Below, piece after piece: positions 14,355 through 51,123 of a stretch of 64,000 nucleotides of DNA (its first letter is position 1; each line of letters starts with the position of its first letter). The DNA is from an uncultured delta proteobacterium (GTDB taxonomy: Bacteria; Desulfobacterota; Binatia; Binatales; Binataceae): the NCBI GenBank assembly GCA_963842085.1, contig CAWJET010000002.1:640001-704000 (forward strand), read 5' to 3'. The position numbers and the translations under genes were made by a program. A model generated the notes under the pieces. The model saw only the letters and a list, made by a program, of their open reading frames with translations, had not been told where the DNA came from and did no database searches.

Positions 14355-14363
14355 CCCCGGAAG

Positions 14364-33142: not shown

Positions 33143-33307
33143 AGCCCGCCTCCGCCACTTTGGAACAATTGAAGTCTGATAATGATGCGAGTGTACGCGC
33201 TCATCGAGCGCAGGCGCAAACGCGGTGGCCTTAACTTGTGAACAACGATTCCGCGAAACAGGCCTCGAAAGAAATCTGCGCCGATGCCAAAGTCAGGGGG
33301 GAGAAGT

Positions 33308-34258: not shown

Positions 34259-35019
34259 TGGGTGTTTCGTTGAGGCCGCGGTGTTTTTCTATCGTGCGCG
34301 CGCCGGATGCGACCGGTTTGGCACACGTCGAGGGCGCGGAGTTGCATCACATGCGCACGGTCTTGCGATTGGCGGTGGGCGTTCGCGTGTCGTTGCTCGA
34401 TCCCACGGGCTTCAAGCATCAGGGCGTAATCGAGCGCTACGAACGCGACCGCGCCGCGATTCGCATCGAATCATCGTCATCGTCGCATCCGCAAACTCGG
34501 ATCATCGTGGCCGCCGCAATCATAAAAGGCGCGCGAATGGACTTCATCATCGAAAAGGCCGCCGAGTTGGGCGTTTCCGAATTATGGCCGATCGTCTGTG
34601 CGCGCGGATTGGTCCGTTCGCCGGGCACGGAGCGGCTGGCGCGATGGCGCAGGCTCGCGCTCGCCGCGGCCAAGCAGAGCCAGTCCGCGGCCACAATGGA
34701 AGTGAGATCGCCGATCGGCGTTGATGACTTGATTCGCGGCGTGCCGCCGGTGACGCTCGCCGTAATCTGCGCGCAAGGCGGAGAGCCGCTCGGCGCCGTG
34801 ATTCGACGCGCGCATCCGCGTGGGATATTGATAGCGGTTGGACCGGAGGGCGATTTCGACGACGGCGAGCGCGCGAAGATTGCGAAGGCGGGATTCGTTG
34901 CGGCCGGACTCGGGCCGAATCGCCTCCGGAGCGAGACAGCGGCCCTGGCAGCGGTCGGCATAGCGGCAGGATTGCTTCACGATGGACAAGGGTCAGGCGA
35001 AGATGCCGAAACGGAATAA
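34258..35019 (+). CDS. rsmE: 16S rRNA m3U1498 methyltransferase
   Basis: HHMRTVLRL, IEKAAELGV, AAKQS, VGPEGDF, LGPNRLRSETA; ATG overlaps the prmA stop. Confidence 0.92.
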   Translation: MGVSLRPRCFSIVRAPDATGLAHVEGAELHHMRTVLRLAVGVRVSLLDPTGFKHQGVIERYERDRAAIRIESSSSSHPQTRIIVAAAIIKGARMDFIIEKAAELGVSELWPIVCARGLVRSPGTERLARWRRLALAAAKQSQSAATMEVRSPIGVDDLIRGVPPVTLAVICAQGGEPLGAVIRRAHPRGILIAVGPEGDFDDGERAKIAKAGFVAAGLGPNRLRSETAALAAVGIAAGLLHDGQGSGEDAETE

Positions 35020-35983
35020 GACGGTGGCGCGCAAGTTCGCGTTTATCATGGACCCGCTCGAGCGGGTGCTGGTCGACAAAGACACGACGTTCGTGTTCAT
35101 GCTCGAGGCGCAATTGCGCGGCCATGCGCTTTATTTTCTCGGCATCCGCGACCTTTACGCGCGCGGGCCGCAAGCGATCGCGCGGGCGCGTCAATGCGAG
35201 GTGATGCGCGGGAATCCTCATTACCGGTTCCTCGACGAGGGCGCCGAGTATCCGCTCGAGACCTTCGATGCGGTCTTCATGCGCAAGGATCCGCCCGCCG
35301 ATGCAGCCTATCTCTACGCCACGATGTTGCTAAGCCTGGCCGACAGCCGCCGCACGTTCGTGCTCAACCATCCGGCGGGTCTGCGCGAGGCCAACGAAAA
35401 GCTCTACTCGCTGAATTTCCCCGACGCGATTCCGCCGACGCTCGTCACCTATGAGATTCCGCGCCTGAAGACGTTTCTCGACGAACAGGGCGGCGAGATG
35501 ATCGTGAAGCCGCTGGACGGTCACGGCGGCGAAGGCGTGTTTCTCGTCACCGCGAAGGACCGCAACCTGGGCGCGATTCTCGAGACGGTCACCCAATACG
35601 AGTCGCGCCTCATCATGGCCCAGCGCTACCTCGCCGCGGCTCGCAACGGCGACAAGCGGCTGATCGTGCTCAACGGCGAGCCGCTGGGATGCACGCTGCG
35701 GGTGCCGCGCGACGACGAGCATCGCGGCAACATCCACGTCGGCGGCACCTGCGTGAAGGCGCCCGTCACTGCGCGCGATCGCGAGATCTGCCGGATGCTG
35801 AAGCCGCGGCTGGAGCGCGACGGGCTGTACTTCGTCGGCCTCGACATCATCGGCGACTACCTGACCGAGGTGAACGTGACGAGTCCGACCGGCGTGCAGG
35901 AGATCGACCGGCTCGAGGGCGCAAACCTGGAAGCCAAGGTAATCGATTTCGTCGAGTCGCGAGTGGCCGGCCTCAAGCGATGA
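35003..35983 (+). CDS. gshB: Glutathione synthetase
   Basis: IMDP...KDTT, MRKDPP, REANEKL, KPLDGHGG, GDKR, RGNIHVGG, TEVNVTSPTG. Confidence 0.96.
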   Translation: MPKRNKTVARKFAFIMDPLERVLVDKDTTFVFMLEAQLRGHALYFLGIRDLYARGPQAIARARQCEVMRGNPHYRFLDEGAEYPLETFDAVFMRKDPPADAAYLYATMLLSLADSRRTFVLNHPAGLREANEKLYSLNFPDAIPPTLVTYEIPRLKTFLDEQGGEMIVKPLDGHGGEGVFLVTAKDRNLGAILETVTQYESRLIMAQRYLAAARNGDKRLIVLNGEPLGCTLRVPRDDEHRGNIHVGGTCVKAPVTARDREICRMLKPRLERDGLYFVGLDIIGDYLTEVNVTSPTGVQEIDRLEGANLEAKVIDFVESRVAGLKR

Positions 35984-36058
35984 AGGGGCCGTTGCACGGC
36001 GCGGCAATCATCGGTACCAATGAAAGTTCGCTTCACCGCGAACGCGTCCAATCACGGT

Positions 36059-36134
36059 GGGCAGGTAGCTCAGTCGGTAGAGCAAAGGACTGAAAATCCT
36101 TGTGTCGAGTGTTCGATTCACTCCCTGCCCACCA
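36059..36134 (+). tRNA. tRNA-Phe (GAA)
   Basis: GGGCAGG acceptor stem, loop CTGAAAA, TTCGATT, encoded CCA. Confidence 0.96.
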
Positions 36135-36206
36135 AAGACCGCAACCGAAGCCGAGGTTTGCTCGCTCGGAACGGCATCAGACGAGCGTCGGCCCGGCGAA
36201 CGGCGG

Positions 36207-36659
36207 TTACCGGCGCGGGGCGCGCCAGACCTCGGGCTTCTTGCCGGTCGTCATTTCGGCCAGCGAGGTCAGTTCGACGCGATCAGCCGTTATCAGCATC
36301 AGGCCGAAGTCCTTCGATTCGGGACCGCCGGGCCAGAACTGCGCGAGGTCGTAGTCAAAGACCTTGCCGCTCCAGATTCGCTTCTTCTCCGCCACGTCTT
36401 CGACAAACTTGGCCTTGCCGGTGACGGTCAGGTGAATCATCTCGGGCCCGATTTGGTAGAAGAGCTCGACCCTGGGATTTTTGTCGATGTGACGTGCCTT
36501 GGCCGAACCGCGTCCGGTCGCGACCCACACGCGCTCACCCTCGAACGCCGGATGCACGACGCGGACCTTGGGCTGGGTTCCGTCGGCGGTCGCGAGATAT
36601 GCCCAGGTCGCCTTTGCGGCGGCCGCGTGAGCCTTGTCCCAGAATGTTGGATCGCTCAT
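36207..36659 (-). CDS. Pyridoxamine 5'-phosphate oxidase-like split-barrel protein
   Basis: YLATADG.QP.VR, S.K..HI..NPRVEL, W...LAQFWPGGPE; RBS GGAGG. Confidence 0.85.
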   Translation of the reverse strand: MSDPTFWDKAHAAAAKATWAYLATADGTQPKVRVVHPAFEGERVWVATGRGSAKARHIDKNPRVELFYQIGPEMIHLTVTGKAKFVEDVAEKKRIWSGKVFDYDLAQFWPGGPESKDFGLMLITADRVELTSLAEMTTGKKPEVWRAPRR

Positions 36660-36703
36660 CTGAATGCCTCCCGAACGTATTCCGTAACACGCCCGCGATT
36701 GGT

Positions 36704-36733
36704 TTGACACTGCGCGGCATCCCGAACTACGGT
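36704..36733 (+). promoter_or_regulatory. Candidate sigma70 promoter for the TetR-led lipid operon (TTGACA-N18-TACGGT)
   Basis: Perfect -35 hexamer and a TAnnnT -10, overlapped by a weak inverted repeat gaact-N8-agttc. Confidence 0.35.
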
Positions 36734-36757
36734 TAGAGTTCCGCACGGAGAAGCGCG

Positions 36758-37426
36758 ATGGAACGCCACGCCCGACGCGCGCAAGTGTTGCGCCATGCCA
36801 AGCGCATCTTTGCCCGCAAGGGATATCACAGGACCAATGTCGCGGACATCATTGCCCGCGCCCGCATCGCGCGCGGCACCTTCTATCTTTATTTCCAGAA
36901 CAAGAAGGACCTGTTCGAGGAATTGCTCGAGCAGGTGGTCACCGAGCTGACGCAGAGGATTCAGCGGCTGCGCGTCGGACCGGGCCAGGACGACCCGGTC
37001 GATCAATTGCGCGCGAACCTGACGCGAGTGCTCAACTACGTGCTGGCTGAGCGCGAGCTGACCGACATCCTGCTGAACCATTCGACCGGATTCGATCACG
37101 AGCTCGACGACAAGATCCAGAACTTTTACGATCGGATCGCGGCCCTCATTAAACGCTCGCTCGATCTGGGAATCGAGATGAACCTGGTGCGCGCCGCGGA
37201 TACGCGCGCGGTGTCGTACGCGATCCTGGGCGGAATCAAGGAAGTGATCGGGATGCTCTCGCGCAGCAACGACGTGGAGATCTCGGCGCTGGTCGAGGAG
37301 ATACTGCAGTTCGGGCTGAGCGGCGTCGCGCGTCCCGAGTTGTTGAGATTCGTGCGCACGCAAGGCGAAGACGGGCGCGAGCCGCTTCCGGGCAACGGCT
37401 CTTTTTTTGGGCCCAAACTAGACTGA
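36758..37426 (+). CDS. TetR/AcrR-family transcriptional regulator
   Basis: A..IFA.KGYH.T.VADI...A.IARGTFYLYF..K..LF HTH. Confidence 0.95.
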   Translation: MERHARRAQVLRHAKRIFARKGYHRTNVADIIARARIARGTFYLYFQNKKDLFEELLEQVVTELTQRIQRLRVGPGQDDPVDQLRANLTRVLNYVLAERELTDILLNHSTGFDHELDDKIQNFYDRIAALIKRSLDLGIEMNLVRAADTRAVSYAILGGIKEVIGMLSRSNDVEISALVEEILQFGLSGVARPELLRFVRTQGEDGREPLPGNGSFFGPKLD

Positions 37427-37427
37427 C

Positions 37428-38240
37428 ATGTCAGTTTACGCGCATAAGAAACCGCCCAGGTCACACGCGCCCAGGACCGTCAAGCGCCGTGCCGCCTTTT
37501 ACGATCTGGACGGCACGCTGGTCGATCTGAACCTGGTGCATGCCGCGATTTTCACGCTCGCCAACGTCGGTGAATGGACCGGACGTGCTTCGTACCTGCT
37601 CGGATTCGCCGCGCGAATCCCGCGCTTGTACGTTGCCGAACAGCGCGACCGCCGACTGCTGAATACGGTGCTGTTCGAGGCGTTCAAAGGTATCTCGCGC
37701 GACCGGCTGTCTTCGCTGGGCGAGGAATATTGCGAGCGCATCCTCATAGGGCATCTGTTTCCGCGCGCGCTGGAATTGATCGCGGCGAATCGCGCGGCCG
37801 GAATCGAGCCGGTGCTGGTGACGGGTTCGCCGGACTTCATCGTGGCGCCCCTGGCGCGTCACCTGGGGATCGCCGACTTCGCCGCGAACCGATTTGTCTT
37901 CAGCCGCGGCCGCGCGACCGGCCGGCTGGCCGAACCGGTTATGGCGGGCGACGAGAAAGCGGTCTGGTGCGAGGACTACGCTGCCGCGCACGACATCGAC
38001 CTGGCGGATTGCTGGGCTTACGCCGACTCGCACTACGACACCGCGTTTTTGGCCGCGGCCGGGCATCCCGTGGCCGTCAACCCCGACCGCAGATTGCGCG
38101 CGGCCGCGCTCAGCCGGCAATGGCCGGTGCTCCACTTCGAGACGGCAGCGTCTTCGGAGCGGGCCTACGATTTCGACAACGACCTGGACCCCAACCACGA
38201 CGGCGAACGATCGACGCGAGGCTCGAATGGCGCGCCCTGA
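37428..38240 (+). CDS. HAD-IB family phosphatase (ElbB-like)
   Basis: FYDLDGTL, LVTGS, EK, YADSHYD, GHPVAVNPD. Confidence 0.9.
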   Translation: MSVYAHKKPPRSHAPRTVKRRAAFYDLDGTLVDLNLVHAAIFTLANVGEWTGRASYLLGFAARIPRLYVAEQRDRRLLNTVLFEAFKGISRDRLSSLGEEYCERILIGHLFPRALELIAANRAAGIEPVLVTGSPDFIVAPLARHLGIADFAANRFVFSRGRATGRLAEPVMAGDEKAVWCEDYAAAHDIDLADCWAYADSHYDTAFLAAAGHPVAVNPDRRLRAAALSRQWPVLHFETAASSERAYDFDNDLDPNHDGERSTRGSNGAP

Positions 38241-39867
38241 AGCAAAGCTCAAGGAACTGAAAACTGCCGAGCTGCGGCACGAGGTCGGCGCGCGAAGCGA
38301 GCTGGTCGTCAAGGTGAATCGGCGCTCGGAGCGCCGCGTCATCCCGTACGGCGAGGAATTTCTGTTCGAGAAACTGCCGGTCTGCACGCGCGTGATCTAT
38401 CCGCCGCCGCCGCTCGATCCTCTCGCCGACCCTGACCAGGCGATTCGCTACGCGCTGTTGCATCCGGAGAACCAGGATCCGTTGTTCGCGCAGCTCAGTC
38501 CCAACATGCGCGTAACGATCGCGATCGACGACATCAGCCTGCCGCTGCCGCAGATGCGCCGGCCCGATATCCGCGAGCGGCTGTTGAACCAGGTGTTGCA
38601 GACGCTCGCCGATTACGGGGTTGACGACGTTCACCTGGTGATCGCGACGTCGCTGCATCGGCGGATGACCGAGGCGGAGATTCGCCGCGTCGTGGGCGAG
38701 CGCGCGTTCAAGCAGTACTGGCCGGACCGGCTGTACAACTTTGACGCGGAAAATCGCGCCGAGCTTTCGATGCTCGGCAAGACGGAGAATGGCGAAGAAG
38801 TGTGGCTGTCGCGGCGCGCGGCGGAGTCGGACCTGCTCATCTATTTGAACATCAACCTGGTGCCGATGGACGGCGGGCACAAGTCGGTCGCGGTCGGACT
38901 CGCGCCCTACCAGAGCCTGCGGCATCACCACAACGTCTCGACGTTGCGCGATTCGCATTCGTACATGGACCCGACACGGTCGGCGTTGCATCGCTCGTCG
39001 GACCGGATGGGCAAGCTGATTCACCAGTCGCTCAACATTTTTCAAGTCGAAACGGCGGTGAATACGCGGATGTACGGCGGGATGCTCGACTTCCTGCACA
39101 AGAACGAGGACCGCTTCACCGACTGGGATCGCACGCGTCTGAAAGGCTTTCAGTGGACGATGCGCAACATGTCCAATGAGATGCGGCGCACCGTGCTGCA
39201 CAACTACGCGGCCCCGTACGGAATGATCGGCGTGTGGGCGGGCGATACCGAGGCGGTGCATCGCAACGCGCTTGCACGCGTGTTCCAGCAATACGCGGTG
39301 CCGGTGAAGGGCCAGGCGGACATTCTAATTGTCGGCGTGCCGTACATCTGTCCATACAACGTGAACTCGATCATGAATCCTGTGCTCGTGCAGTGCACCG
39401 GGCTGGGCTACCTGTTCAACATGTATCGGAACAAGCCGCTGGTGCGCGAAGGCGGCACGATGATCGTCTGTCATCCGCTGCGCGACGAATTTCATCCCGA
39501 GCATCATCCGAGTTACATCGAGTTTTTCCATCGATGCCTGGCGGAGACGACCGATGCGGTTGAGCTCGAGAAAACTTTCGAGCGCGAGTTCGCGCGCAAC
39601 CCGACGTACATTCATATGTACCGCTACGGCAACGCGTACCACGGCGTGCATCCGTTCTACATGTGGTACTGGGGTGAGCCGGCGCGGCAGCACGTCGGGC
39701 GCGTGATCGCGGCGGGATGCGAAGAGCCGGACGTCGCGGCGCGCCTTGGATGGGAAGCGGCGGACACGCTCGACGAGGCGATCGCGATGGCGACGTCGGA
39801 GCTGGGGCGCTCGGCCTCCATAACCTACCTGCACCTGCCGCCGCTGGTGATCGCGGATGTCGAGTAG
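38227..39867 (+). CDS. Lactate racemase (LarA/DUF2088)-domain protein (ElbC-like)
   Basis: AIR.AL..P...[33 protein letters not shown]; ATG at 38227 overlaps the HAD gene. Confidence 0.85.
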
Positions 39868-42800
39868 CAACGGCAAACGCAACGGGGCCGCGGCGCGCGG
39901 CGGGTCGTCGATGCCGGCGCTCGAACAGGTGCTGCGCGGGCGTCGTATCCTGTTGACGGGCGCGACCGGATTTCTCGGCAAGGTGTTTCTCGCGCTCCTG
40001 CTGCGATGGCATCCTGAGATCGAGCGCGTGTATCTGCTGATTCGCGGCGATCGGCGCAGCAGCGTCGGCCGCTTTCGCCGCGAGATTCTCGACTCGCCGG
40101 TGTTTGCGCCCCTGCGCGAACATCTCGGCGATAAGTTCGATCGCTACATCGATGAAAAAATCGTCGTCGTTCCCGGCGACATCACCAACGACGGCCTGCT
40201 CGGCGAAGAAGCAAAGCCGTTCAAGCCCGGCAGCCTCGACGCGGTCGTGCATAGCGCGGGGCTGGTGAACTTCGAGGCATCGCTGGAAAAGGCGATCGAG
40301 GTCAACACGACGGGCGTCGCCAACGTGATCGAGTTCTGCCGCAAGCTCGGCGCCGCGATGATGCACGTATCGACCTGCTACGTCGCGGGCAGCGCCGACG
40401 GGCATCGCTACGAAGACGACATCCCCGACGACTGGTGCCCCAACGGGCGCAAGTCGTTCAGGCTGGAGCGGGAGATTCGCGACGCGTTGGCGGCTATCCA
40501 GCGCGTGCAGTCCGAGTCGCGCGATCAGTTGCGTCACGCGGAGTTTCGCGGCGACGAGGACGACGCCGGTAGCTCTCGCGAGTCGGCCGTCGAGCACCGG
40601 CGCAAGCAGTGGGTCGAGGAACGCCTCAAGTACGTCGGCCGGGTACGCGCGCAGAGTTGGGGATGGCCCAACACGTACAGCTATACCAAGAGTCTCGGCG
40701 AACAGTTGATGCTCGCGAATCGCGACACGCTCGACGTCACGGTCGTGCGTCCGGCGGTGATCGAAAGCGCGCTGCGCGATCCGTTCCCCGGCTGGAACCA
40801 GGGCGTCAACACCAGCGCGCCCCTGACTTATCTCGCCGGCCGCGGCTACCGATTTTATCCCGCCAAGGCGGAGTTGGTGCTCGACGTGATCCCGGTCGAT
40901 CTCGCGGCGCACGCGATGATTCCGATCCTCGCCGCGCTGCTATCGCGCAAGCACAAGCCCATCTACCAGCTTTGCACATCGGATCGGAATCCGCTGCCGA
41001 TGCGCCGGCTGGTCGAGCTAACCGCGCTCAGCAATCGCCGCGAGCATCGCAAGGACGGCGGCACGATGCGCTGGCTGGGGCCCCATCTGGAAGCCGTCGT
41101 CGTGTCGCAGAGCACTTACGACCTCGCGAGCAGCACCGTTCCGAAAATACTCAAGCAAGCGGCGGCGTTCGCGCGGAGCGTGGTGGGCGACGAGAATCGG
41201 CGAGCGAAAAACATTGAGAGCGCGATTGACAAGTTCAAGGAAAACACCGACCTCGCGCGCGAGTTGGTCGAGGTCTATCGTCCCTACATCCAGGAGCTCG
41301 TTTATACTTTTCACGCGAGCAACATTCGCGCGCTTTACGCGTCGCTCGAGCCGGTTGACGCCGAGCGCCATCCGTTTCGTCCCGATCTGATCGATTGGCG
41401 CGACTACTGGATCAACATTCATCTGCCGGGCCTGCGCCGCCATATTTTTCCGCAGCTCGATCTCCACGCCCGCGGCAGGCCCAAGTCGCTGCCCCGTCAT
41501 CGCACTCTCGTCGATATGCTCGATCGCGCCGCCGACCGCTACGGTTCCCGACCCGCGATGGTTGCGCGGCGGCCGTCCGGCGAGCAGACGCTGACCACCT
41601 ATCGCGAGCTGCGCGACCGGGTGCATCGGGCAGCTCTCCTGCTCGCGACGCGCGGAATCAAGCCCGGCGATCGCGTGCTTCTGATCGGCGACAACTCGCC
41701 CGACTGGGTGCTCGGCTATTTCGCGATCCTGTGCGCAGGCGCGATCGCCGTGCCGCTGGACCAGCTGATTTCCGCCGAGGAGCTGGCGCCGATCTGCAAG
41801 ATCGCCGAGCCGGCCGCGGCGCTGCGGTCAAGCGCAGTTCATAAGCGCCTCGGCTCCGCGCTTGGCGACGCTCATCCCAAGCTCATCGAGCTCGATCTCG
41901 CCGAGCTCGCGCGGCCGTTCATTCTGCGTGGCGATGCGAAGACGCCGCCGGCGCCGCCGGAGCGAAAAGCGCTGGCGTCGATCCTGTTCACCTCCGGCAG
42001 CACCGGCGCGCCCAAGGGCGTGATGCTGACGCACGGCAACTTCGCCGCTGAAGTGGCGATGTTGTCGCGCGTCTTTGTTCTCGGCGCCGACGATGTGGTG
42101 CTGTCGCTGCTGCCATTGCATCATGCATTCGAGTTCACCTGCGGGATGCTGTTGCCGCTCGCCAGCGGCGCCACCATCGTCTATCCGCTAGAGGTCGATG
42201 CGAAGACGCTCTCGCGCACGCTCGCTGACGTGCGCCCGACCGCGCTGATAGGAGTGCCCGCGGTGTGGGAGGCGGTCCATCGGCGCATCGTCGATCAAGT
42301 CGAGGCGCGCGGTCCCTTCTTTCACGCGGCCTTCGACAATCTGCGCGATCTGAATCGCCGTCTGGACGCGAAATCCGGCCTTAACTTCGGCGCTATAGTT
42401 TTCCGCCAGGTTCATTCCGGCTTGGGTGGACGCCTGCGGCTCGCCGTGAGCGGCGGTTCTGCCCTGCCCCATCGCGTCGCGGAGTTTTTCAATGACATCG
42501 GAATTCCGTTGCTCGAAGGTTACGGGTTGACCGAAGCGGCTCCCGTTTTATCCGTTGCGCGGCCTGACGAACCGCTGCAAGTCGGCGCGGTGGGACGGCC
42601 GCTGAACGGCGTCGAGCTCAAGCTGATGCCCGCAACTGGCTCGATCGGCGAGATAGTCGCGCACGGGCCGAACGTGATGGCAGGTTACTATCGCAACGAA
42701 GCCGCAACCGCCGAAGTGTTGATCGACGGGTGGCTTCACACGGGAGACCTCGGGCGCCTCGACGACGACGGCCGCCTGTACATCGTCGGGCGCGCCAAGG

Positions 42801-44236
42801 AAGTTATCGTCGATTCCGGCGGCAACAACATCTACATCGAAGAGCTCGAGGAAATTTACGGCCGTTCGCAGTACGTCAAGGAGATGGCGGTGGTCGGCTT
42901 GAAGGTCGGCCAGGGCGAGCAGGTCGCTGCGCTCGTGGTGCCCGCTTACTCGCGCGGCGAGAGCCGTCGCGCCGTTGAGGACCGGCTGCGCAGCGACTTC
43001 GACCAGGTCGCGCGCGACCTCAGCGCGCACAAACGAATCAGGATCCTGCGCTTCACCGACGCAGAACTGCCGCGCACGCGCACCCGCAAGATCAAACGCG
43101 CCGATGTTGCCGCAATGCTGCGGCGGATGCTCGACGTCAGCGCGCGCGAAGTCGTCGTTGATACCGCGAACCCCGAGGTCGAGACGTGGCTCGCAGAGGC
43201 GCTCGCGTCGGTCGCCACCGAGCCGGTCAACATCACGCCGGCGACGCGGCTGATCGAGGATCTCGGCCTCGACTCGCTGGCACTGGCTGAAATCGGCGAG
43301 CTGATCGGCGAACGTGCGTCCCGCGAGATCGCGCCGGAGGAGATCGCCGACTTGCGCACCGTCGCGGACCTCCAGCTTCTCGCCGCGCAACCCCTCAGCG
43401 TCAGCGGGCGGCATCGAATGCCCTCCTACGCGAAGTTCGCCGAACCTTACACTCCGCGCCTGCCGGCGCCGCTGAAGTGGCTCGGTCGCTTCGCGGTGCG
43501 CGGGGCGGAGCGCGCGATTTTCGACGGATGGCTGAAGCCGAAGATCCTCGGGCGCGGCAACGTCCCGGCCAATCGCAACTTCATCGTCGTCGCGAATCAT
43601 TCCAGTCATCTCGACTTCAGCCTGGTCGGCTACGCGCTCGGCGCGATCGGCGAAGACCTCCGCGTGCTCGCCGCCAAGGACTATTTTTTCAACACGCCGG
43701 CGCGGCGCTTTCTCGCGTCGAACTTCACTTCGCTGATGCCATTCGATCGGGAACGAGCGCAACTCGAATCGCTCGAAGACGCGCTCGCCGAATTAGCGCG
43801 GGGACGCAGTGTTTTGATGTTCCCCGAGGGCACGCGCTCGCCCGACGGCGAAATTCACGAGTTCAAGAGCGGCGCCGGATACCTGGCGCTGCGCAGCCGA
43901 TGCGACGTGCTGCCGGTCCTGATTCGCGGCACTCATGACGTGATGGGCAAGGGCAGCCTCGTCCCGCGGCGGCATCCGGTGGAAGTCCGTATAGGCCGCG
44001 CGATCGCTGCGGCCCGGCTGCACGAAGTGGCCGAAAGTTCAGAAGGCGCCGGCGCCTATCGCAAGATCGCAGACCTGATGCGCACGGCGGTCATCACGCT
44101 TTCCGGCTCGCCCCCGAAGTTACCGCTCACCTTCGACGCGACAACCGCGGCCTCAAACGGCGCCGCGCCGGTCAAGCACGCACACTCAGGGACCGCTCGC
44201 TCGCCCGACCTGCCTCGCGGCCACGCCAAGGCGTGA
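39857..44236 (+). CDS. Multidomain lipid synthase: fatty acyl reductase + acyl-CoA/AMP ligase + ACP + PlsC acyltransferase (ElbD-like)
   Basis: TGATGFLGK and NTYSYTKSLGE (FAR), FTSGSTGAPKG / EGYGLTE / TGDLG (adenylation), LGLDSL (PP-binding Ser), NHSSHLD and FPEGTRS (acyltransferase); 1459 aa. Confidence 0.92.
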   Translation: MSSSNGKRNGAAARGGSSMPALEQVLRGRRILLTGATGFLGKVFLALLLRWHPEIERVYLLIRGDRRSSVGRFRREILDSPVFAPLREHLGDKFDRYIDEKIVVVPGDITNDGLLGEEAKPFKPGSLDAVVHSAGLVNFEASLEKAIEVNTTGVANVIEFCRKLGAAMMHVSTCYVAGSADGHRYEDDIPDDWCPNGRKSFRLEREIRDALAAIQRVQSESRDQLRHAEFRGDEDDAGSSRESAVEHRRKQWVEERLKYVGRVRAQSWGWPNTYSYTKSLGEQLMLANRDTLDVTVVRPAVIESALRDPFPGWNQGVNTSAPLTYLAGRGYRFYPAKAELVLDVIPVDLAAHAMIPILAALLSRKHKPIYQLCTSDRNPLPMRRLVELTALSNRREHRKDGGTMRWLGPHLEAVVVSQSTYDLASSTVPKILKQAAAFARSVVGDENRRAKNIESAIDKFKENTDLARELVEVYRPYIQELVYTFHASNIRALYASLEPVDAERHPFRPDLIDWRDYWINIHLPGLRRHIFPQLDLHARGRPKSLPRHRTLVDMLDRAADRYGSRPAMVARRPSGEQTLTTYRELRDRVHRAALLLATRGIKPGDRVLLIGDNSPDWVLGYFAILCAGAIAVPLDQLISAEELAPICKIAEPAAALRSSAVHKRLGSALGDAHPKLIELDLAELARPFILRGDAKTPPAPPERKALASILFTSGSTGAPKGVMLTHGNFAAEVAMLSRVFVLGADDVVLSLLPLHHAFEFTCGMLLPLASGATIVYPLEVDAKTLSRTLADVRPTALIGVPAVWEAVHRRIVDQVEARGPFFHAAFDNLRDLNRRLDAKSGLNFGAIVFRQVHSGLGGRLRLAVSGGSALPHRVAEFFNDIGIPLLEGYGLTEAAPVLSVARPDEPLQVGAVGRPLNGVELKLMPATGSIGEIVAHGPNVMAGYYRNEAATAEVLIDGWLHTGDLGRLDDDGRLYIVGRAKEVIVDSGGNNIYIEELEEIYGRSQYVKEMAVVGLKVGQGEQVAALVVPAYSRGESRRAVEDRLRSDFDQVARDLSAHKRIRILRFTDAELPRTRTRKIKRADVAAMLRRMLDVSAREVVVDTANPEVETWLAEALASVATEPVNITPATRLIEDLGLDSLALAEIGELIGERASREIAPEEIADLRTVADLQLLAAQPLSVSGRHRMPSYAKFAEPYTPRLPAPLKWLGRFAVRGAERAIFDGWLKPKILGRGNVPANRNFIVVANHSSHLDFSLVGYALGAIGEDLRVLAAKDYFFNTPARRFLASNFTSLMPFDRERAQLESLEDALAELARGRSVLMFPEGTRSPDGEIHEFKSGAGYLALRSRCDVLPVLIRGTHDVMGKGSLVPRRHPVEVRIGRAIAAARLHEVAESSEGAGAYRKIADLMRTAVITLSGSPPKLPLTFDATTAASNGAAPVKHAHSGTARSPDLPRGHAKA

Positions 44237-44319
44237 TGCCAGCTTACGCCAACGCCGCTGCATCTCCCGCGTCAAGCTGATGCTGGAATACTTACCCGCC
44301 GGATGGTTACATTTGAGTC

Positions 44320-44856
44320 ATGGTTGATTGGTTCAGCAAACGCCCCGACCACACCCTGCGGCCGACTCGCAACGGCCGCCGCCCGTCGGTCAGCGTGATC
44401 TCAGACGAACTGCTGGTCGGCGAATATCCGAATGAGGCCGATATCGCGTGGCTGAAGGACACCTACGGCATCACCGCGGTGCACAATCTCCAGGACGACG
44501 ACGATCTGCGCATGAACGGGTTGGACGATCGCGGCCTCTGCGCGGAGTACACGGCCCACGGCATCGATTACGTGCGGACGCCGATCCAGGACGGCAGCGC
44601 GGACGCGATGGCCGCGCGGCTCGAAGCCGCACTGCATGACCTTCGCGACCTGGTCGGTTCGGGCGCCCGCGTCTATCTTCATTGCAACGCCGGGATGAAT
44701 CGGGCGCCCACGCTGGCGATTGCGTTCCTGCGTGCTTATCGGCAAATGTCACTCGAAGAAGCGATGATGCTCGTGAAAAAGCAGCGCGCATGCGGACCGT
44801 TCATGACGGTGCTCGAGGAGTACTTCGGGCCGCGCGACCACAAGCCGGAAAAATGA
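44320..44856 (+). CDS. Dual-specificity (CX5R) phosphatase
   Basis: GITAVHNLQ, PIQD, VYLHCNAGMNRAPT. Confidence 0.9.
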   Translation: MVDWFSKRPDHTLRPTRNGRRPSVSVISDELLVGEYPNEADIAWLKDTYGITAVHNLQDDDDLRMNGLDDRGLCAEYTAHGIDYVRTPIQDGSADAMAARLEAALHDLRDLVGSGARVYLHCNAGMNRAPTLAIAFLRAYRQMSLEEAMMLVKKQRACGPFMTVLEEYFGPRDHKPEK

Positions 44857-44857
44857 C

Positions 44858-45634
44858 TTGACCTCGTCAGGCGCAGCCGGAAGTCTACCGCGGGCGGTGC
44901 CGAGGCAGAAGTTTCTCACGGCCTGCGCGTGGGGCGTACATCTATATACCGCGCTCGGCGCGGCGCTCGGCCTGCTCGCGATCTTCTTCGCCTCGCGCGG
45001 CGACTTCCGCGCGTCATTCCTCGCGATGGGCGCGGCGACCATCATCGATTCCAGCGACGGTCCGCTCGCGCGCCGGCTGATGGTCAAGACCCGCGTGCCC
45101 AGCTTCGACGGCGCGCTGCTCGACAACATTGTCGACTACCTGACCTACACCGTGGCGCCCGTGTTCCTGATGCTGGAAGCGGGCCTAATCCCGGATTCGC
45201 GATGGGGCCTGGCGCTGGCGTGTTTCGTCATGCTCGCGAGCGTTTACGGATTCTGCCACACCGAAGCCAAAACCCCGGACCACTACTTCCTCGGATTCCC
45301 GAACTATTGGAACCTCGTCGCGTTTTATCTTTACTGTCTCGGCGCCGGCACCGTATTCAACGTTGCCGTACTGATGCTGCTGGGCGTGATGGTGTTCTTG
45401 CCGCTCAAATACATTTATCCAAATCGAACCGTCTCGCTCCGCCGGACCACGCTCACGCTTGGAATCATTTGGGGGTTTGTGACAGTCGCCTCGCTGTTGA
45501 TGCTGCCGACCGTGAATCCGATTATGTTGTGGGCCGGGCTCAGTTTCATCGCTTACTACTTCATTGCGTCGTTCGTGCTCCAGGCTCGCGCCGCGCTGAA
45601 GTCCAATCGCAGCCGTGCCGACCGGGATGCCTGA
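44858..45634 (+). CDS. pcs: Phosphatidylcholine synthase-like CDP-alcohol phosphatidyltransferase
   Basis: AWGVHLYTALG; DGPLARRLMVKTRVPSFDGALLDNIVD fits the Pcs motif DG(X)2AR(X)8P(X)3G(X)3D(X)3D; KT.DHYFLGFP.YWN; about 8 TM helices. Confidence 0.82.
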   Translation: MTSSGAAGSLPRAVPRQKFLTACAWGVHLYTALGAALGLLAIFFASRGDFRASFLAMGAATIIDSSDGPLARRLMVKTRVPSFDGALLDNIVDYLTYTVAPVFLMLEAGLIPDSRWGLALACFVMLASVYGFCHTEAKTPDHYFLGFPNYWNLVAFYLYCLGAGTVFNVAVLMLLGVMVFLPLKYIYPNRTVSLRRTTLTLGIIWGFVTVASLLMLPTVNPIMLWAGLSFIAYYFIASFVLQARAALKSNRSRADRDA

Positions 45635-47417
45635 ATCCGCGTCGCATACCGCAACCGCCGCCTCCGAGTCATGGCTCGAGGTGATCGATTCCGATTCTCC
45701 CCTGCTCCTGATAGCGCCGCACGGCGGACGCGCTGAACCACGCACGCGCTCGATCCTCAATCCCAAGGTCAACGACCTCCACACGGCAGACATCACGCGC
45801 GGACTTGCGGCGCGGCTGGACGCGTCGGCGCTGATCAACGTCGCGATGGATCGCAATCGGCTCGACTGCAACCGTCTCTCCCAAATAATCGAGCGCGCGC
45901 CGTGGCTGCTCGAACTGATCGCAGAGCGCGTCGGCGCGATCGTCGCGCGTCACGGCCGCGTCACGGTGCTGCTCATCCACGGATGGAACATCATCGAGCC
46001 GCGCCTCGATTTCGGACTCGGACTGCGGCACTCGGGAGGCGAATTGCGGCCGCCCGGTTCCGCCTGCGTCTCGGCCAGCGACGATTTCATCAACGGTCCG
46101 CTCGCCGGACTCGCCGACCGCCTCAATCGGCATGGAATCAAACCAACCTACGGCATGCGTTACCCCGGCGGCGGTCTCCAGAACCTGTTGCAGGCATTCA
46201 CCGCGCGGCATCGGCACAGCCCCCACGCGCCGCTCAGATCGATTTCCGAGACCGCCATGAACGGTGTCGTCGATGCGGCCCAACTCGAACTGTCAGTTGC
46301 GCTGCGAATGCCCGGCGAGTTGCGCAATCGATGCGAGAACGCCATCGCCGAAGTATTCTCGGCCAACGGCGCTGATTCGCCCGCCGCGCGGGCGCCCCTG
46401 GTTGTGAATCGCGCGCCGCATCGCGCGGTCGCCAAATCCGAAATCGGCGCGGCCGCGACGGTCGCCGCGCCCGGACGCATCGGGATCGAATTTTACGATC
46501 CGGCGGCGCGATTCGGCGCGATGGCGAGCTTCGACGTCGGCGGTGCGGGCATGGGCGCGCGGATCATGATGCTGTTCGATCGCAATCACGCGGCGCTGTT
46601 TACCGCCGAAGGACGGCCCACACGTTCCGCAAGCGCCGTCACACACGGCTCGCTCTCGCTCCGGCGCGAGGGCAAATCGATCGTGCTCGCGTTCCGCGGA
46701 CCTGTTGTCATCGTACCCGACGCCACCGCCTATCTAAGCATCGAACGCGCTCTGGCTTCAGGCCGGCTCGACGGCGACACGGAAGTTAGTGTCAGTCTTG
46801 AAATTGATCGCGCCGGCAGTGAATTCGACTTCGACCGGATTCTTTCGCTGCCCGGCGCCGCGCTGGGGGTTCCGTCCTCGACCGCTGCATTCGGACGAAT
46901 TGGGGGACAAGTTCGCGTTGACGGTGCCGCACGGACGGTGAACGGACTTGCGCGCGCGGGAATGTCCTTCACCGGACTGGGGCCGCAGAAATTCACTGCG
47001 CGCCGGATGATTTGGGCGTGCTTCGAAGATCAAGAGGCGCCGCGCGCGCTGGAAGCCCGCTCGGTCGCGACCGACGATGCGCCGCCAAGTCGGAGTGCCA
47101 GGATTCTCGGCGCCGGCGGCTGGTCACCGTGCGAGCTGAGCGATCTAACGATCGAGACGTCGTCAATCGAGAAACCACCGCATCGCATTTCTGGATCGGT
47201 GACGCGTCCCGACGGGTCGTTATGCGAATTCGAGGGCAGCGTCGAATGCTTCATTCCGTTATCGCGTCCCAGGCCGGAGCAGTCGCGCATCTACACGTCA
47301 CTCGGATTCGCGAGCTTTCGCACGGGGAGTCATCGCGGGGCCGGGATGTTTGAATACTCGCGCATCGCCGATTCGGTGCCGGCCGCGGCTGATGACAACG
47401 ACGACGATTCCGATTGA
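45627..47417 (+). CDS. Hypothetical two-domain protein: N-terminal Zn-amidohydrolase-like (APHGG) + C-terminal beta-rich domain
   Basis: LLLIAPHGG...NDLHT...LLIHG...QLEL; C-terminus SLGFASFR.G..RGAGMFEYS; start overlaps the pcs stop. Confidence 0.75.
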   Translation: MPESASHTATAASESWLEVIDSDSPLLLIAPHGGRAEPRTRSILNPKVNDLHTADITRGLAARLDASALINVAMDRNRLDCNRLSQIIERAPWLLELIAERVGAIVARHGRVTVLLIHGWNIIEPRLDFGLGLRHSGGELRPPGSACVSASDDFINGPLAGLADRLNRHGIKPTYGMRYPGGGLQNLLQAFTARHRHSPHAPLRSISETAMNGVVDAAQLELSVALRMPGELRNRCENAIAEVFSANGADSPAARAPLVVNRAPHRAVAKSEIGAAATVAAPGRIGIEFYDPAARFGAMASFDVGGAGMGARIMMLFDRNHAALFTAEGRPTRSASAVTHGSLSLRREGKSIVLAFRGPVVIVPDATAYLSIERALASGRLDGDTEVSVSLEIDRAGSEFDFDRILSLPGAALGVPSSTAAFGRIGGQVRVDGAARTVNGLARAGMSFTGLGPQKFTARRMIWACFEDQEAPRALEARSVATDDAPPSRSARILGAGGWSPCELSDLTIETSSIEKPPHRISGSVTRPDGSLCEFEGSVECFIPLSRPRPEQSRIYTSLGFASFRTGSHRGAGMFEYSRIADSVPAAADDNDDDSD

Positions 47418-47427
47418 TTGAAGCGCG

Positions 47428-48366
47428 TTAGGCGGGCGTGACTGCTGCGCGAGTGCGCGTGGCGGCGATCGCGTCAACCTGGTTGGCGATGTCGGCGAGC
47501 GCTTTGCCAGTCGGCGTTGACCCGTACTCGCGAACGAACAGCACGCCGCGATCGGTGCAGTCGGCGAGCCGCGGTTCAAACGCAAGCCGCGCCAGTATCG
47601 GCACCGCGGCCCCGCGCGCGATTCCGTGGAGATCGCCTTCCGGCCACAGCGGCCGAACCGCGCGGCATCCGTCGCAATTGAAGCCGACCATATTTTCGAC
47701 GATTCCGACAATTGGCAGGTCGAGTGCGCGGCCAAGCTCCATCGCCTGCCGCGCGGCGCCGGCGTCCTGCGCGGACGGATGACTCAGGAGCAGAACGCCG
47801 TCGAGCGCTACCAGGGCGGCCAACGAGTACAATCGATCGAGGCCGGTCGCCAGATCGATTATCAACAAATCCACGCTCCCCAACTGCGATTGCGCCAGGA
47901 TTCGGCCGAGCGCTGCGCGATAGCTCAGCTCAGCAGGGCGGCGCGCCGCGGCGAGCGCAACCGGCTCTGCGCCATTGTTGCCGTCGAGTTGATCGTAATC
48001 CTGCACAAAGCTGATTGGTGGCGCCTCGCCGCCGGGAAGTTGATCGCTCGAAACTATGCGCAAGCCATGCGGTCCCGCCGCCGGCTCGATCCCTTCGATC
48101 ATCGGGAGTCGGCGCTGCGGTTTCATTCCGAGCATCGCCGCGACGCTGGGCGAATTCAAATCCGCGTCCACGATTGCAACCTTGCGGCCTTTCATCGCCA
48201 ACGCCGCCGCGATATTCACCGCGAGCATGCTCTTGCCGACTCCGCCGCGCGCACTCGCAAGGGCGATGGTCGCGCCGACGCCGGAAAGATTGGCGCGAAT
48301 CCGGTCGCGCAAGCCGACAAGATCGACAGACGATCCGCCGTTCTCAATATCGAAAAATATTCTCAT
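47428..48366 (-). CDS. Mrp/NBP35 (ApbC)-like P-loop NTPase, divergent
   Basis: ASARGGVGKS, VDADLNSPS...MLG, IIDL, GIVENM..F.CDGC. Confidence 0.85.
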   Translation of the reverse strand: MRIFFDIENGGSSVDLVGLRDRIRANLSGVGATIALASARGGVGKSMLAVNIAAALAMKGRKVAIVDADLNSPSVAAMLGMKPQRRLPMIEGIEPAAGPHGLRIVSSDQLPGGEAPPISFVQDYDQLDGNNGAEPVALAAARRPAELSYRAALGRILAQSQLGSVDLLIIDLATGLDRLYSLAALVALDGVLLLSHPSAQDAGAARQAMELGRALDLPIVGIVENMVGFNCDGCRAVRPLWPEGDLHGIARGAAVPILARLAFEPRLADCTDRGVLFVREYGSTPTGKALADIANQVDAIAATRTRAAVTPA

Positions 48367-48500
48367 CAGCCGGCCGCTGAACTCCCAACGCAGCGATCCT
48401 AACGGTCGTTAAGGACTGCGGGTGCTGCGCAAGTTGTTCTGCTTAGGATGACTGTTTTGGGCTGCCCGGTAAACAATGCCCGCCGAAGGCGGCTCGCCGC

Positions 48501-48953
48501 CTAGGCGCTCTCGTCGTCGGCGTCGGTCGACCCTATTTTGCGGTAGGTGTTGCGCTCGTCATCGAATCGTCGCTGCGATTTTGCCTCGCGTTCCTGATCC
48601 TGCTGGCAATCCCGGCACAGCCGCGAAAACGGCATCGCTTCGAGGCGGTCCTCGGCGATTTCCAGTCCGCAGGACTCGCAGACGCCGTAGGTGCCTTCGT
48701 CGAGCCGCTCGAGCGCGTCGTCGATTTGCTTGAGCTTGACGCGTTCACGGTCCGACAGGATGAAGTTGATCTCGCGATCGCGCTCCTCGGACGCAAGGTC
48801 GTAGGTATCCATGCCCTCGTCCTTGTTGCCTTCGCGTTCGGCCCGCGATTCCGAATCGATCTCACCGAGCAGTTTGCTTTTGGTCTCCAGCAGTTGTTCG
48901 CGCACCCTCGCAAGGAACTTCTTTCGGTTCGCGGCAACTGGTTTCTTCGCCAT
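48501..48953 (-). CDS. dksA: DksA/TraR C4-zinc-finger transcription factor
   Basis: D.YDLASEE coiled-coil tip, IDDAL.RL.EGTYG.CESCG.EI...RLEA.P...LC.DC. Confidence 0.88.
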   Translation of the reverse strand: MAKKPVAANRKKFLARVREQLLETKSKLLGEIDSESRAEREGNKDEGMDTYDLASEERDREINFILSDRERVKLKQIDDALERLDEGTYGVCESCGLEIAEDRLEAMPFSRLCRDCQQDQEREAKSQRRFDDERNTYRKIGSTDADDESA

Positions 48954-48970
48954 TTCCAACTCCTGGTATA

Positions 48971-50311
48971 TTAGGCGGCCGCGCCGGCGACCGTTGCATG
49001 TAAATCGTAGCTGAGCGCCTTGTCGATTCGTGCGCGGACGAATTCGCCCGCCTCGGCGTCGCCCGCAAGAAGCACCGAGCCGTCGATTTCCGGCGCCTGG
49101 CCCGAGGTTCGCCCGCGCAGCCGCGTCGAGCGTCCAGGCATCGGACCCTCGACCAGCACTTCCACTTCGCGTCCGACGAGGCAGCGATTCTTGGCGAGCG
49201 AAATCTCCGCCTGCGTCGCCATCAGGCGCGCCCGCCGCGCGCGCTTGACACGCTCGGGCACCTGGTCCGGCATGTCGTAAGCCGCGGTATTCTCTTCGCG
49301 TGAGTAGTTGAAAACCCCGACGCGATCGAACTGCTCATTGCGGACGAAGTCCACCAGCCGCTCGAAGGCAGCGTCAGTCTCGCCGGGAAAGCCGACAATA
49401 AACGACGTTCGCAGCACGACGCCCGGTATTCGCGCTCGCACGCGGTCGAGCAGCTTGACCAGCGCGGCGCCGGAGCGCTCGCGACGCATCGCTTGCAGCA
49501 TCGCATCGTCGGCGTGCTGCAACGGCATGTCGATATACTTGACGACCTTGGGCAACTCGGCGATTGCGTCGAGCAGTTCAGCGGTCAGGAAATTCGGATA
49601 GCAATAGAGCAACCGTATCCAGCGGAGCTCGTCGATCGTCGAGAGTTCATGCAACAGCGCCGCCAGCGACGACGGCTCATCGAGGTCGCGGCCGTAGGCG
49701 GTCAGATCCTGCGCGATCAAATTGATTTCGCGGACGCCGGCGGCCGCCAGGTTGCGCGCCTCGGCGACGAGATCGGCGATCGGGCGGCTCTCATGCAGGC
49801 CGCGAATCTTCGGAATAATGCAGAAAGCGCACTTGTGATTGCAGCCCTCGGAAATCTTCAAGTAGGATGTGAAGAAATCTCCGGTCTTGACGCGCGGAAT
49901 CGCCGACGTCGGCAGCAGATGCGCCGCGCCGGCGTACGGGATCGGCCGCGTCTCGGGTGCTTCGGTGCGCCGCAGCAGTTCCGGCAGCTCGAGGAAGTTG
50001 CCGGTACCGACGAACACGTCCACCTCTGGCATCGTGGCGGCGAGTTCAGTGGCGTAGCGCTGCGACAAACATCCCGCGACCACCAGCCGCTTGCCGCAGC
50101 CGCGCTGCTTGACCTCCGCCGCTTCGAGAATCGCGTCGATCGATTCCTTCTTGGCCGCCTCGATAAACGCGCAGGTGTTCACCAACAGTACTTGCGCCGC
50201 TTCGGGATCGAGCGTGATCTCGAATCCGGCCGCGGTCAGCGCACCGAGCATCAGCTCGCTGTCGGCGAGATTCTTGGGGCATCCCAACGTGAGTAAGTGA
50301 ACTTTTTCCAT
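48971..50311 (-). CDS. rimO: Ribosomal protein S12 methylthiotransferase
   Basis: LGCPKNL.DSE, VNTCAFI, YLKISEGCNHKCAFCIIP, TRAM domain with APEIDG. Confidence 0.95.
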   Translation of the reverse strand: MEKVHLLTLGCPKNLADSELMLGALTAAGFEITLDPEAAQVLLVNTCAFIEAAKKESIDAILEAAEVKQRGCGKRLVVAGCLSQRYATELAATMPEVDVFVGTGNFLELPELLRRTEAPETRPIPYAGAAHLLPTSAIPRVKTGDFFTSYLKISEGCNHKCAFCIIPKIRGLHESRPIADLVAEARNLAAAGVREINLIAQDLTAYGRDLDEPSSLAALLHELSTIDELRWIRLLYCYPNFLTAELLDAIAELPKVVKYIDMPLQHADDAMLQAMRRERSGAALVKLLDRVRARIPGVVLRTSFIVGFPGETDAAFERLVDFVRNEQFDRVGVFNYSREENTAAYDMPDQVPERVKRARRARLMATQAEISLAKNRCLVGREVEVLVEGPMPGRSTRLRGRTSGQAPEIDGSVLLAGDAEAGEFVRARIDKALSYDLHATVAGAAA

Positions 50312-50423
50312 GACCGAATCGGGAAATTTACGGGGCCTTTATAAATACCTGTCGCATACCGGCGAGGCAATCACGGTTCCAGGCTTCGTCGCGGCGATCG
50401 TGTTTTTTCAGTCTATCACAGCG

Positions 50424-51122: not shown

Positions 51123-51123
51123 C

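Follow-up and report, generated by a model that had tools for sequence, protein, structure and literature searches.

The closest described counterpart of the locus studied here is the elb cluster of Myxococcus xanthus, which genetics ties to ether lipids (PMC9131029). Within its operon elbD, whose product carries FAR1-like, acyl-CoA-synthetase, acyl carrier protein (ACP) and AGPAT-like domains, is flanked by elbC, of 'unknown function', and elbE, which encodes an NAD epimerase; another epimerase gene (elbA) and a HAD hydrolase gene (elbB) complete the operon (PMC9131029). Even in Myxococcus, ether-bond formation by the ElbD route is an unsolved step (PMC9131029). Outside the myxobacteria, elb clusters have been published from Acidobacteriota subdivision 4, Poribacteria and Latescibacterota (preprint 10.64898/2026.06.23.733905), and ElbD-like and AGPS matches in Binataceae are tabulated in the dataset of PMC13012113. 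Here we analyse positions 36758-47417 of a 64,000-nucleotide stretch (the window; contig C2, positions 640001-704000) from an uncultured soil bacterium (Candidatus Binatus) of the family Binataceae, class Binatia, whose closest public relatives carry the names Candidatus Binatus or Binataceae and whose genome (4.93 Mb in two contigs, 100% complete) was also searched. The locus combines an elb-type core, comprising a TetR-family regulator gene and elbB, elbC and elbD, with a downstream block encoding a phosphatase, a transferase of the phosphatidylcholine synthase (Pcs) type and a 596-aa protein. With a probability of roughly 0.7, these are two neighbouring units that evolve independently, and ether-linked phosphatidylcholine would arise through their coexistence.

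All seven genes were verified on the plus strand (Table 1), reproducing the coordinates, strand and domains of an earlier reading made from the DNA letters alone (the sequence-only reading), which had described them as co-oriented and mostly overlapping or abutting. For ElbC the listed open reading frame (ORF) begins at 37894, and the ATG used here overlaps the stop codon of the HAD gene. The 1459-aa enzyme consists of a fatty-acyl reductase (Pfam domains at residues 33-354 and 467-531), an adenylation domain resembling acyl-CoA synthetases (555-1078), an ACP (1111-1172) and a PlsC-type acyltransferase (1232-1356). The expected catalytic motifs are complete: GATGFLG at residues 35-41, YSYTK at 274-278, TSGSTGAPKG at 712-721, DSL at 1139-1141, NHSSHLD at 1247-1253 and FPEGTR at 1322-1327. 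Aligned across about 95% of its length, the enzyme shares 36-41% identity with homologues in Myxococcota loci, and it is 37-39% identical over residues 17-1451 to those of Corallococcus exercitus, C. terminator, C. interemptor and Cystobacter fuscus. The match to the four-domain order of ElbD (PMC9131029), previously proposed from the sequence, is thus borne out by full-length homology to myxobacterial loci.

Gene order extends this correspondence to the upstream genes. A search with ElbD returned 63 loci, 52 of Binatia type (at least 60% identity) and 11 from other phyla (36-41%). Where the flank was long enough, the HAD and ElbC genes lie upstream of ElbD in 44/44 Binatia-type loci and in seven of the nine from other phyla, whereas the TetR gene is upstream in all 44 of the former and in none of the nine latter. 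ElbB is 39-40% identical to the HAD protein encoded upstream of ElbC in Corallococcus and Cystobacter, and ElbC is 49-55% identical to the product of the gene upstream of ElbD in Myxococcota (52-53% for Corallococcus and Cystobacter). In C. exercitus, C. terminator and Cystobacter fuscus the layout is epimerase, HAD, LarA-like, ElbD, epimerase. Among 80 ElbC-centred loci from Myxococcota and Acidobacteriota, ElbD follows in 42 of the 57 with at least 6 kb of downstream sequence, and the HAD gene precedes ElbC in 56/72. The order HAD, LarA-like, ElbD, with an elbE epimerase next, is common to Corallococcus, Cystobacter, other Myxococcota and Acidobacteriota. Because the order of the first three genes is conserved in Binatia, Myxococcota and Acidobacteriota loci alike, we identify the LarA-fold gene as elbC; the earlier suggestion that the HAD and LarA-like genes belong with ElbD is well founded. 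On homology and synteny, we take the TetR gene and elbB-elbC-elbD to be the form that the elb ether-lipid core has in Binataceae. The sequence-only reading of an elb core outside the myxobacteria therefore stands as an identification but not as a novelty, since such clusters in other phyla are already published.

Spacing divides the seven genes into two groups. The first four are separated by a 1-nt gap, a 14-nt overlap and an 11-nt overlap, and the last three by a 1-nt gap and an 8-nt overlap, with 83 nt between the groups. The distribution of the two groups differs across 101 Binatia genomes (a sample that includes one flagged as unpublished, G225, which counts as a single genome in the four class-wide tallies and bears no claim by itself): the Pcs-type gene is single-copy in 100 of them, whereas ElbC occurs in 11. 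Phosphatidylcholine synthesis seems to be universal in the class. At least 4.5 kb of sequence follows elbD in 43 Binatia-type loci. The complete block is present in 38 of them; one further locus is without Pcs, and L036, L043, L045 and L062 are without the block altogether.

Two relatives separate the units directly. In G163, from the same genus and 98% complete, the order is a 201-aa ORF, the TetR gene, 940 bp of unrelated DNA, the phosphatase gene, Pcs and the 596-aa gene. Window positions 36213-37368 and 44266-47421 have homologous sequence there, and what is missing is exactly the HAD gene, elbC and elbD. On this comparison the elb core is a clean presence/absence polymorphism within the genus Binatus. 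The 940 bp lie at 13808-14750 of that locus (L194, G163:C15:74000-93000) and replace window positions 37369-44265, which span the end of the TetR gene, the HAD gene, elbC and elbD. In G217, from the same family, contig C1 encodes TetR, HAD, ElbC and ElbD. The phosphatase, Pcs and 596-aa genes are on C22, together with the ParA-like and MiaB-type genes that in the window lie beyond the block. The TetR gene thus moves with elbBCD in G217 and remains beside the phosphatase gene in G163.

Loci from further afield give the same picture. Neither Pcs, the phosphatase nor the 596-aa gene lies near ElbC in any of the 80 Myxococcota and Acidobacteriota loci, which include Pyrinomonadaceae and Blastocatellaceae. 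In other Binatia families, none of 16 Pcs loci has the phosphatase, a 596-aa homologue or Elb genes within about 5.5 kb, so that the phosphatase adjoins Pcs in Binataceae only, and none of 18 loci around 596-aa homologues has Pcs, the phosphatase or Elb genes nearby. By spacing and distribution, the three genes form a tightly packed, Binataceae-specific block around a class-wide, single-copy Pcs-type gene. Because class-wide sampling reveals two separable units, a dedicated ether-phosphatidylcholine operon is not supported. This counts against the proposal that the three downstream genes form a dedicated head-group module: they part from the elb genes in G163, in G217 and in the four loci named above, and Pcs far outnumbers ElbC.

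Several observations weigh against our reading. The two units lie on the same strand only 83 nt apart. A motif scan of 36000-48500 found no terminator-like or promoter-like site in this gap; over the whole scan the promoter and terminator counts did not depart from chance (2, with 2.3 expected; 8, with 10.1 expected). The adjacency of elbD and the block is kept in 38/43 related loci, and read-through transcription across all seven genes is possible. These features would be expected of a single seven-gene operon that makes alkyl-ether phosphatidylcholine, with the last three genes supplying the head group specifically for what ElbD produces. A phospholipase-C-like gene between elbD and the phosphatase gene in 12 of the 43 loci points the same way, as do reports that Acidobacteriota subdivision 4 with elbD homologues make phosphocholine alkyl ether lipids and that CDP-alcohol phosphatidyltransferase genes stand beside elbD in some sponge-symbiont clusters (preprint 10.64898/2026.06.23.733905). 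We nevertheless consider a single operon unlikely. The Pcs-type gene occurs in 100 genomes of the class sample, against 11 for ElbC, and, being the only one in the genome, must also serve diacyl lipids; the block persists without elbBCD in G163, and the units are split in G217. The ParA-like and MiaB genes beyond the block are kept in most of the loci that keep it, which argues that the adjacency of elbD and the block is general synteny. The linkage of pcs, the phosphatase and the 596-aa gene to elbD that the sequence-only reading proposed to survey thus exists among Binatia-type loci but in none of the 80 ElbC-centred loci from Myxococcota and Acidobacteriota.

Other contrary observations concern function. 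No elbE epimerase gene lies downstream of elbD in the window, whereas one does in 8/8 loci from other phyla, and the genome holds no clear elbE orthologue, the best match being 30-36% identical and encoded beside phytoene synthase and desaturase genes; in M. xanthus, inactivation of elbE leads to fewer ether lipids (PMC9131029). The sequence-only reading had this epimerase replaced by a head-group module: the epimerase is indeed absent, and the Pcs block is, in our reading, a separate unit. The likeness to M. xanthus itself is by published description, the sequences compared being those of Corallococcus and Cystobacter (ElbD 37-39%, ElbC 52-53%). Even for M. xanthus, the reductase and acyltransferase activities of ElbD were never demonstrated in vitro (PMC9131029). 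The transferase scores below every NCBIfam cut-off for Pcs (187/440, 148/350, 141.7/400, 134.8/400 and 130.1/300 bits), and is for this reason named Pcs-type and not taken as a proven Pcs. With regard to ElbC, a LarAH14 protein of Frankia was inactive on the 2-hydroxy acids tried (PMC7583248). LarC, of the set that makes the nickel-pincer cofactor of LarA, occurs in 94/101 Binatia genomes against 11/101 for ElbC-type proteins, and four of the five LarC-bearing genomes checked have no LarA-family (Lar_N) match. We therefore treat the presence of LarB, LarC and LarE as permissive, not specific, evidence for cofactor use by ElbC; co-occurrence of LarC and ElbC was considered as a discriminator of cofactor use and rejected because LarC is near-universal.

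Part of this evidence would also fit an ElbD-type enzyme whose products are fatty alcohols or aldehydes, wax esters or ester lipids of an unusual kind, with ElbC and ElbB acting on some other substrate. The missing elbE orthologue is consistent with such a role, as are the description of M. xanthus, in which no fatty alcohols were detected and acyltransferase activity was not seen with the isolated enzyme (PMC9131029), and that of LarAH groups 14-16, which are presented without an assigned substrate (PMC7583248, PMC12611868). We regard it as very improbable: the order HAD, ElbC, ElbD is shared with M. xanthus-type clusters that are genetically tied to ether lipids, and the genome also encodes two other proteins belonging to ether-lipid metabolism, an AGPS homologue and a desaturase of the PEDS1/CarF family. 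An alkyl-ether-lipid role for the Binataceae elb core is what we infer by analogy.

Table 1. Features of the locus and related genes. Positions are those of the window unless preceded by a contig (C) of the source genome or a related locus (L).
Feature	Position	Strand	Evidence
201-aa ORF upstream of TetR	36102-36707	+	no Pfam or NCBIfam match
TetR-family regulator, first gene of elb unit	36758-37426	+	TetR_N E 8e-16, TetR_C_24
ElbB-type HAD-IB phosphatase	37428-38240	+	PF12710 E 8e-31; TIGR01490 118.8 bits (cut-off 98.3); DLDGT residues 26-30
ElbC-type LarA-family protein (LarAH14/15/16)	38227-39867	+	NF052592 833 bits (cut-off 740)
ElbD-type 1459-aa enzyme	39857-44236	+	NAD_binding_4 + Sterile, AMP-binding, PP-binding, Acyltransferase (Pfam)
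83-nt gap between the two gene blocks	44237-44319	.	spacing
Dual-specificity (CX5R) phosphatase	44320-44856	+	DSPc E 1e-16, 61.4 bits (cut-off 33.5); HCNAGMNR 121-128
Pcs-type CDP-alcohol phosphatidyltransferase	44858-45634	+	PF01066 (CDP-OH_P_transf) 32.7 bits (cut-off 22)
596-aa two-domain protein	45627-47417	+	FGase/PghP-like N-terminal fold (model); C-terminal DUF7064
Mrp/NUBPL-type ParA-like ATPase	47428-48366	-	
MiaB-type radical-SAM protein	48971-50311	-	
AGPS homologue, 612 aa	C1:200424-202262	-	FAD_binding_4 + FAD-oxidase_C
PEDS1/CarF-family desaturase	C1:3053604-3054317	+	PF10520 190-191 bits
LarB	near C1:1388453-1389079		292.5 bits (cut-off 175)
LarC	C1:2175213-2176412		LarC1 206 bits, LarC2 147 bits (above cut-offs)
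LarE	near C1:1038955-1039731		324.6 bits (cut-off 150)
Zn-phospholipase-C-like gene (related loci)	L012:14380-15237, L038:11464-12423, L044:10235-11311, L039:14486-15196		weak Pfam

The surroundings of the locus are conserved as well. The 201-aa ORF upstream of the TetR gene is 44-72% identical in most Binataceae loci, including the species without elbBCD (G163). The ParA-like and MiaB-type genes run convergent to the downstream block and are syntenic with it across Binataceae, even where elbBCD lie elsewhere (G217). A shared TetR operator was sought upstream of the TetR and phosphatase genes, and neither inverted repeats nor a common repeat were found; a single 11-nt direct repeat lies upstream of the TetR gene.

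The sequence-only reading had noted that the window encodes no alkyl-dihydroxyacetone phosphate (DHAP) synthase and had called the ether-forming step unexplained. Our scan of 32300-51500 likewise found no such gene, but the second half of the statement applies to the window only, since an AGPS homologue is encoded on contig C1. Among solved structures the homologue matches 2uuu (E 6e-65) and 4bby (E 4.5e-56) best, with a D-lactate dehydrogenase at 3.6e-28. The gene stands beside alpha/beta hydrolase and methyltransferase genes, and not in a three-gene operon of the MXAN_1676 type.

The same contig encodes a desaturase of the PEDS1/CarF family (PF10520), an assignment that covers PEDS1-type and FAD4-type enzymes alike. 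The family occurs in just two of the 41 Binataceae genomes sampled. ElbD (reductase and acyltransferase), AGPS and a PEDS1/CarF-family protein are the gene set used to call aerobic plasmalogen capacity in PMC13012113, whose Dataset S1 has no Binataceae entry. One could imagine the elb core and the Pcs block being read through and working with the AGPS homologue and the desaturase, and with a nickel-pincer borrowed-hydride ether step by ElbC, to give alkyl- or vinyl-ether phosphatidylcholine. We rate this combination as decidedly unlikely; if true, it would mean that a soil bacterium outside the myxobacteria makes a choline plasmalogen aerobically.

ElbC is the sole Lar_N match in the genome. 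It retains D101/D102, H144, K219 and H233-235, the equivalents of LarA Asp72, His108, Lys184 and His200, and in an alignment with 9q2u has N-I-N at 208-210 in place of His174, the second catalytic histidine of LarA. The retained residues are invariant in an alignment of 11 sequences. Their roles follow PMC7583248 and PMC12611868, in which Lys184 tethers the cofactor, His200 is a nickel ligand and His108 is the first catalytic histidine; Asp72 is grouped with the cofactor-holding residues. Because the equivalent of His174, which racemization needs, is absent, we file ElbC as a LarA-family member and not as a racemase. Among solved structures it comes closest to 9q2u (E 8e-42) and 9q3j, those of the single-histidine proteins LarASp and LarABw (PMC12611868), and LarAH groups 14 and 15 are likewise described as having no second catalytic histidine (PMC12611868). 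ElbC probably carries the nickel-pincer cofactor and performs a redox-neutral, one-base step, as its conserved residues suggest.

The genomic neighbours of LarAH groups 14-16 include PlsC, phosphoserine-phosphatase, acyl-CoA-synthetase and thioester-reductase COGs, according to the supplement of PMC7583248; in the main text of that paper neither 'lipid' nor 'acyl' occurs. A full-text literature search joining ElbC to 'lactate racemase' gave no match, and one joining nickel-pincer to ether lipid gave a single match, a work on haloarchaeal annotation. A phylum-wide search with NF052592 matched mostly other LarA homologues and was repeated at class level. LarB, LarC and LarE are encoded elsewhere in the genome (Table 1). 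As a separate observation, genomes with nickel-pincer synthesis genes yet without a known client enzyme exist among Binatia (4/5 checked).

The Pcs-type protein is predicted from its sequence to condense choline with CDP-diacylglycerol. Every one of its top five NCBIfam models describes a phosphatidylcholine synthase (E 4e-55 to 9e-38), and it resembles Pcs far more than PgsA or Pss. Its motif DSSDGPLAR-x12-GALLDNIVD (residues 64-93) follows the pattern D-x2-DG-x2-AR-x12-G-x3-D-x3-D, in which the penultimate D is presumably the original form of the Pcs motif. The motif is printed as DX2DGX2ARX12GX3GX3D in PMC3972451, and the transferase carries D where the last G is printed there. Relatives are named 'CDP-alcohol phosphatidyltransferase family protein' by NCBI and phosphatidylcholine synthase by JGI, and the homologous proteins listed for it are from Binatus relatives only. 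A search of the genome found no second Pcs-type gene. An apparent fusion of Pcs with the 596-aa protein in locus L039 was rejected because the reading frames differ.

The phosphatase has its HCX5R loop within the DSPc domain, as a CX5R dual-specificity member does. Among solved structures, two plant glucan phosphatases, LSF2 (E 3.5e-18) and SEX4, come closest, whereas PTPMT1, a lipid phosphatase, scores only E 5.8e-4. The block could be one for choline salvage: phosphocholine released by an enzyme of the phospholipase C type would be dephosphorylated by the CX5R phosphatase, and Pcs would attach the resulting choline to CDP-diacylglycerol. In another version, the phosphatase would act like PTPMT1 on a phosphorylated product of the transferase. 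The tight packing of the three genes would suit such a block, and the phosphatase's nearest solved relatives (LSF2, SEX4 and laforin) use non-protein substrates. A pairing of CDP-alcohol transferase and phosphatase is known from phosphatidylglycerol and phosphatidylinositol synthesis (PMC3972451). The gene upstream of the phosphatase gene in the 12 loci mentioned above is Zn-phospholipase-C/P1-nuclease-like, but its Zn_dep_PLPC matches are weak (27-33 bits, cut-off 26.8) and no such gene was found in the source genome. In locus L043 a phospholipase-like gene follows elbD where the whole phosphatase/Pcs/596-aa block is missing. The low PTPMT1 score, the far greater closeness of the transferase to Pcs than to PgsA or Pss, and the company of 596-aa homologues in other Binatia families, which is not of head-group genes, speak against it further, and we hold choline salvage to be possible but doubtful.

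The 596-aa protein has no Pfam or NCBIfam match at default thresholds, and an identical 596-aa protein is on record. An AlphaFold model (predicted local distance difference test (pLDDT) 81.4; predicted template modelling score (pTM) 0.84) was compared by Foldseek, which returned Fsa2 (7e5t, E 6e-9), the 25-phosphosteroid lyase 9g4c and AttH (2ich), together with FGase (2q7s, E 5e-6) and PghP (3a9l). In the model, the N-terminal domain is like N-formylglutamate amidohydrolase and poly-gamma-glutamate hydrolase, and the C-terminal domain is an AttH/CrtC/Diels-Alderase-like double barrel, DUF7064. Weak Pfam matches to FGase in 16/18 and to DUF7064 in 15/18 family members agree with this division, and the invariant residues include H32, D50, H118 and E221.

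The 596-aa family comprises 298 representatives at E up to 0.001 in a 50%-clustered library and is found in 72/101 Binatia genomes; in the Protein Atlas the protein falls in its own Binatota clusters only. Homologues in other Binatia families have enoyl-CoA hydratase, MFS and LysR genes as recurrent neighbours. Near three of the 18 other-family homologues lie giant proteins with RHS-repeat or TcdB_toxin_midN domains, identified by Pfam only (L190:12021-17072, minus strand; L189:23-5734; L192:7024-13287). Candidate 596-aa homologues downstream of elbD in Myxococcota were rejected, as these ORFs of similar size are unrelated.

In our reading of two coexisting units, the pathway would begin with ElbD adenylating a fatty acid and loading its own carrier domain. 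Its N-terminal reductase would turn part of the acyl pool into fatty aldehyde or alcohol, and its PlsC-type domain would acylate a glycerol-phosphate or DHAP acceptor. ElbC could then transiently oxidize the C2 hydroxyl of a glycerol-phosphate lipid intermediate by means of a borrowed hydride, which would permit the exchange of acyl for alkyl before the hydride is given back; the loss of the second catalytic histidine suggests that the step is non-racemizing. ElbB would remove phosphate. The AGPS homologue may provide the classical route in parallel, as in M. xanthus. The Pcs block most likely serves bulk phosphatidylcholine synthesis, and its phosphatase may help to supply choline or to turn over head groups. 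With both pathways in the same cell, alkyl-acyl-glycerol phosphate that enters the CDP-activated pool may end up as ether-linked phosphatidylcholine.

The Binataceae locus offers a compact elbB-elbC-elbD core, free of elbA and elbE, in a nearly closed genome that encodes LarB, LarC and LarE, and a sister species that lacks exactly elbB, elbC and elbD provides a natural comparison. Together these make it a clean system in which to test ElbC as a nickel-pincer lipid enzyme. For work on soil and peat, Binataceae join the possible sources of alkyl ether lipids from bacteria. The locus also carries a caution for genome mining: adjacency within a family resembled an extended operon, and class-wide sampling resolved it into two separable units.

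Three described systems frame the proposed parts. The phosphocholine ether lipids of Acidobacteriota subdivision 4 (Sinninghe Damste et al. 2014, 2018, via preprint 10.64898/2026.06.23.733905) are a precedent for the proposed ether-phosphatidylcholine product: these too are soil bacteria with elbD and elbC homologues, and presumably with phosphatidylcholine. They differ in that none of the 80 ElbC-centred loci, many from Pyrinomonadaceae and Blastocatellaceae, has Pcs in its flank. The transferase shares with Pcs of Sinorhizobium, Agrobacterium and Legionella the CDP-alcohol phosphatidyltransferase domain, the 12-residue motif spacer and the best-scoring models; it differs in that its scores are below half of the model cut-offs, and its flanking CX5R phosphatase and 596-aa genes are found in Binataceae only. 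ElbC has in common with LarAH groups 14-16, LarASp and LarABw the tether lysine, the nickel-binding histidine, one catalytic histidine and the aspartate, as well as the missing second catalytic histidine, and scores above the cut-off of NF052592. LarASp and LarABw belong to another group, with asparagine for the histidine, and their gene context suggests a place in sugar-phosphate metabolism (PMC12611868).

The comparison with M. xanthus elbA-E (Lorenzen et al. 2014, via PMC9131029 and PMC13012113) is the closest. The Binataceae locus differs from it in having neither elbA nor elbE, in the TetR gene that leads the Binatia-type unit and in its host family. By the published description it agrees with it in the four domains of ElbD and their order, in elbB (HAD) and elbC directly upstream of elbD, and in a separate AGPS homologue encoded elsewhere in the genome.

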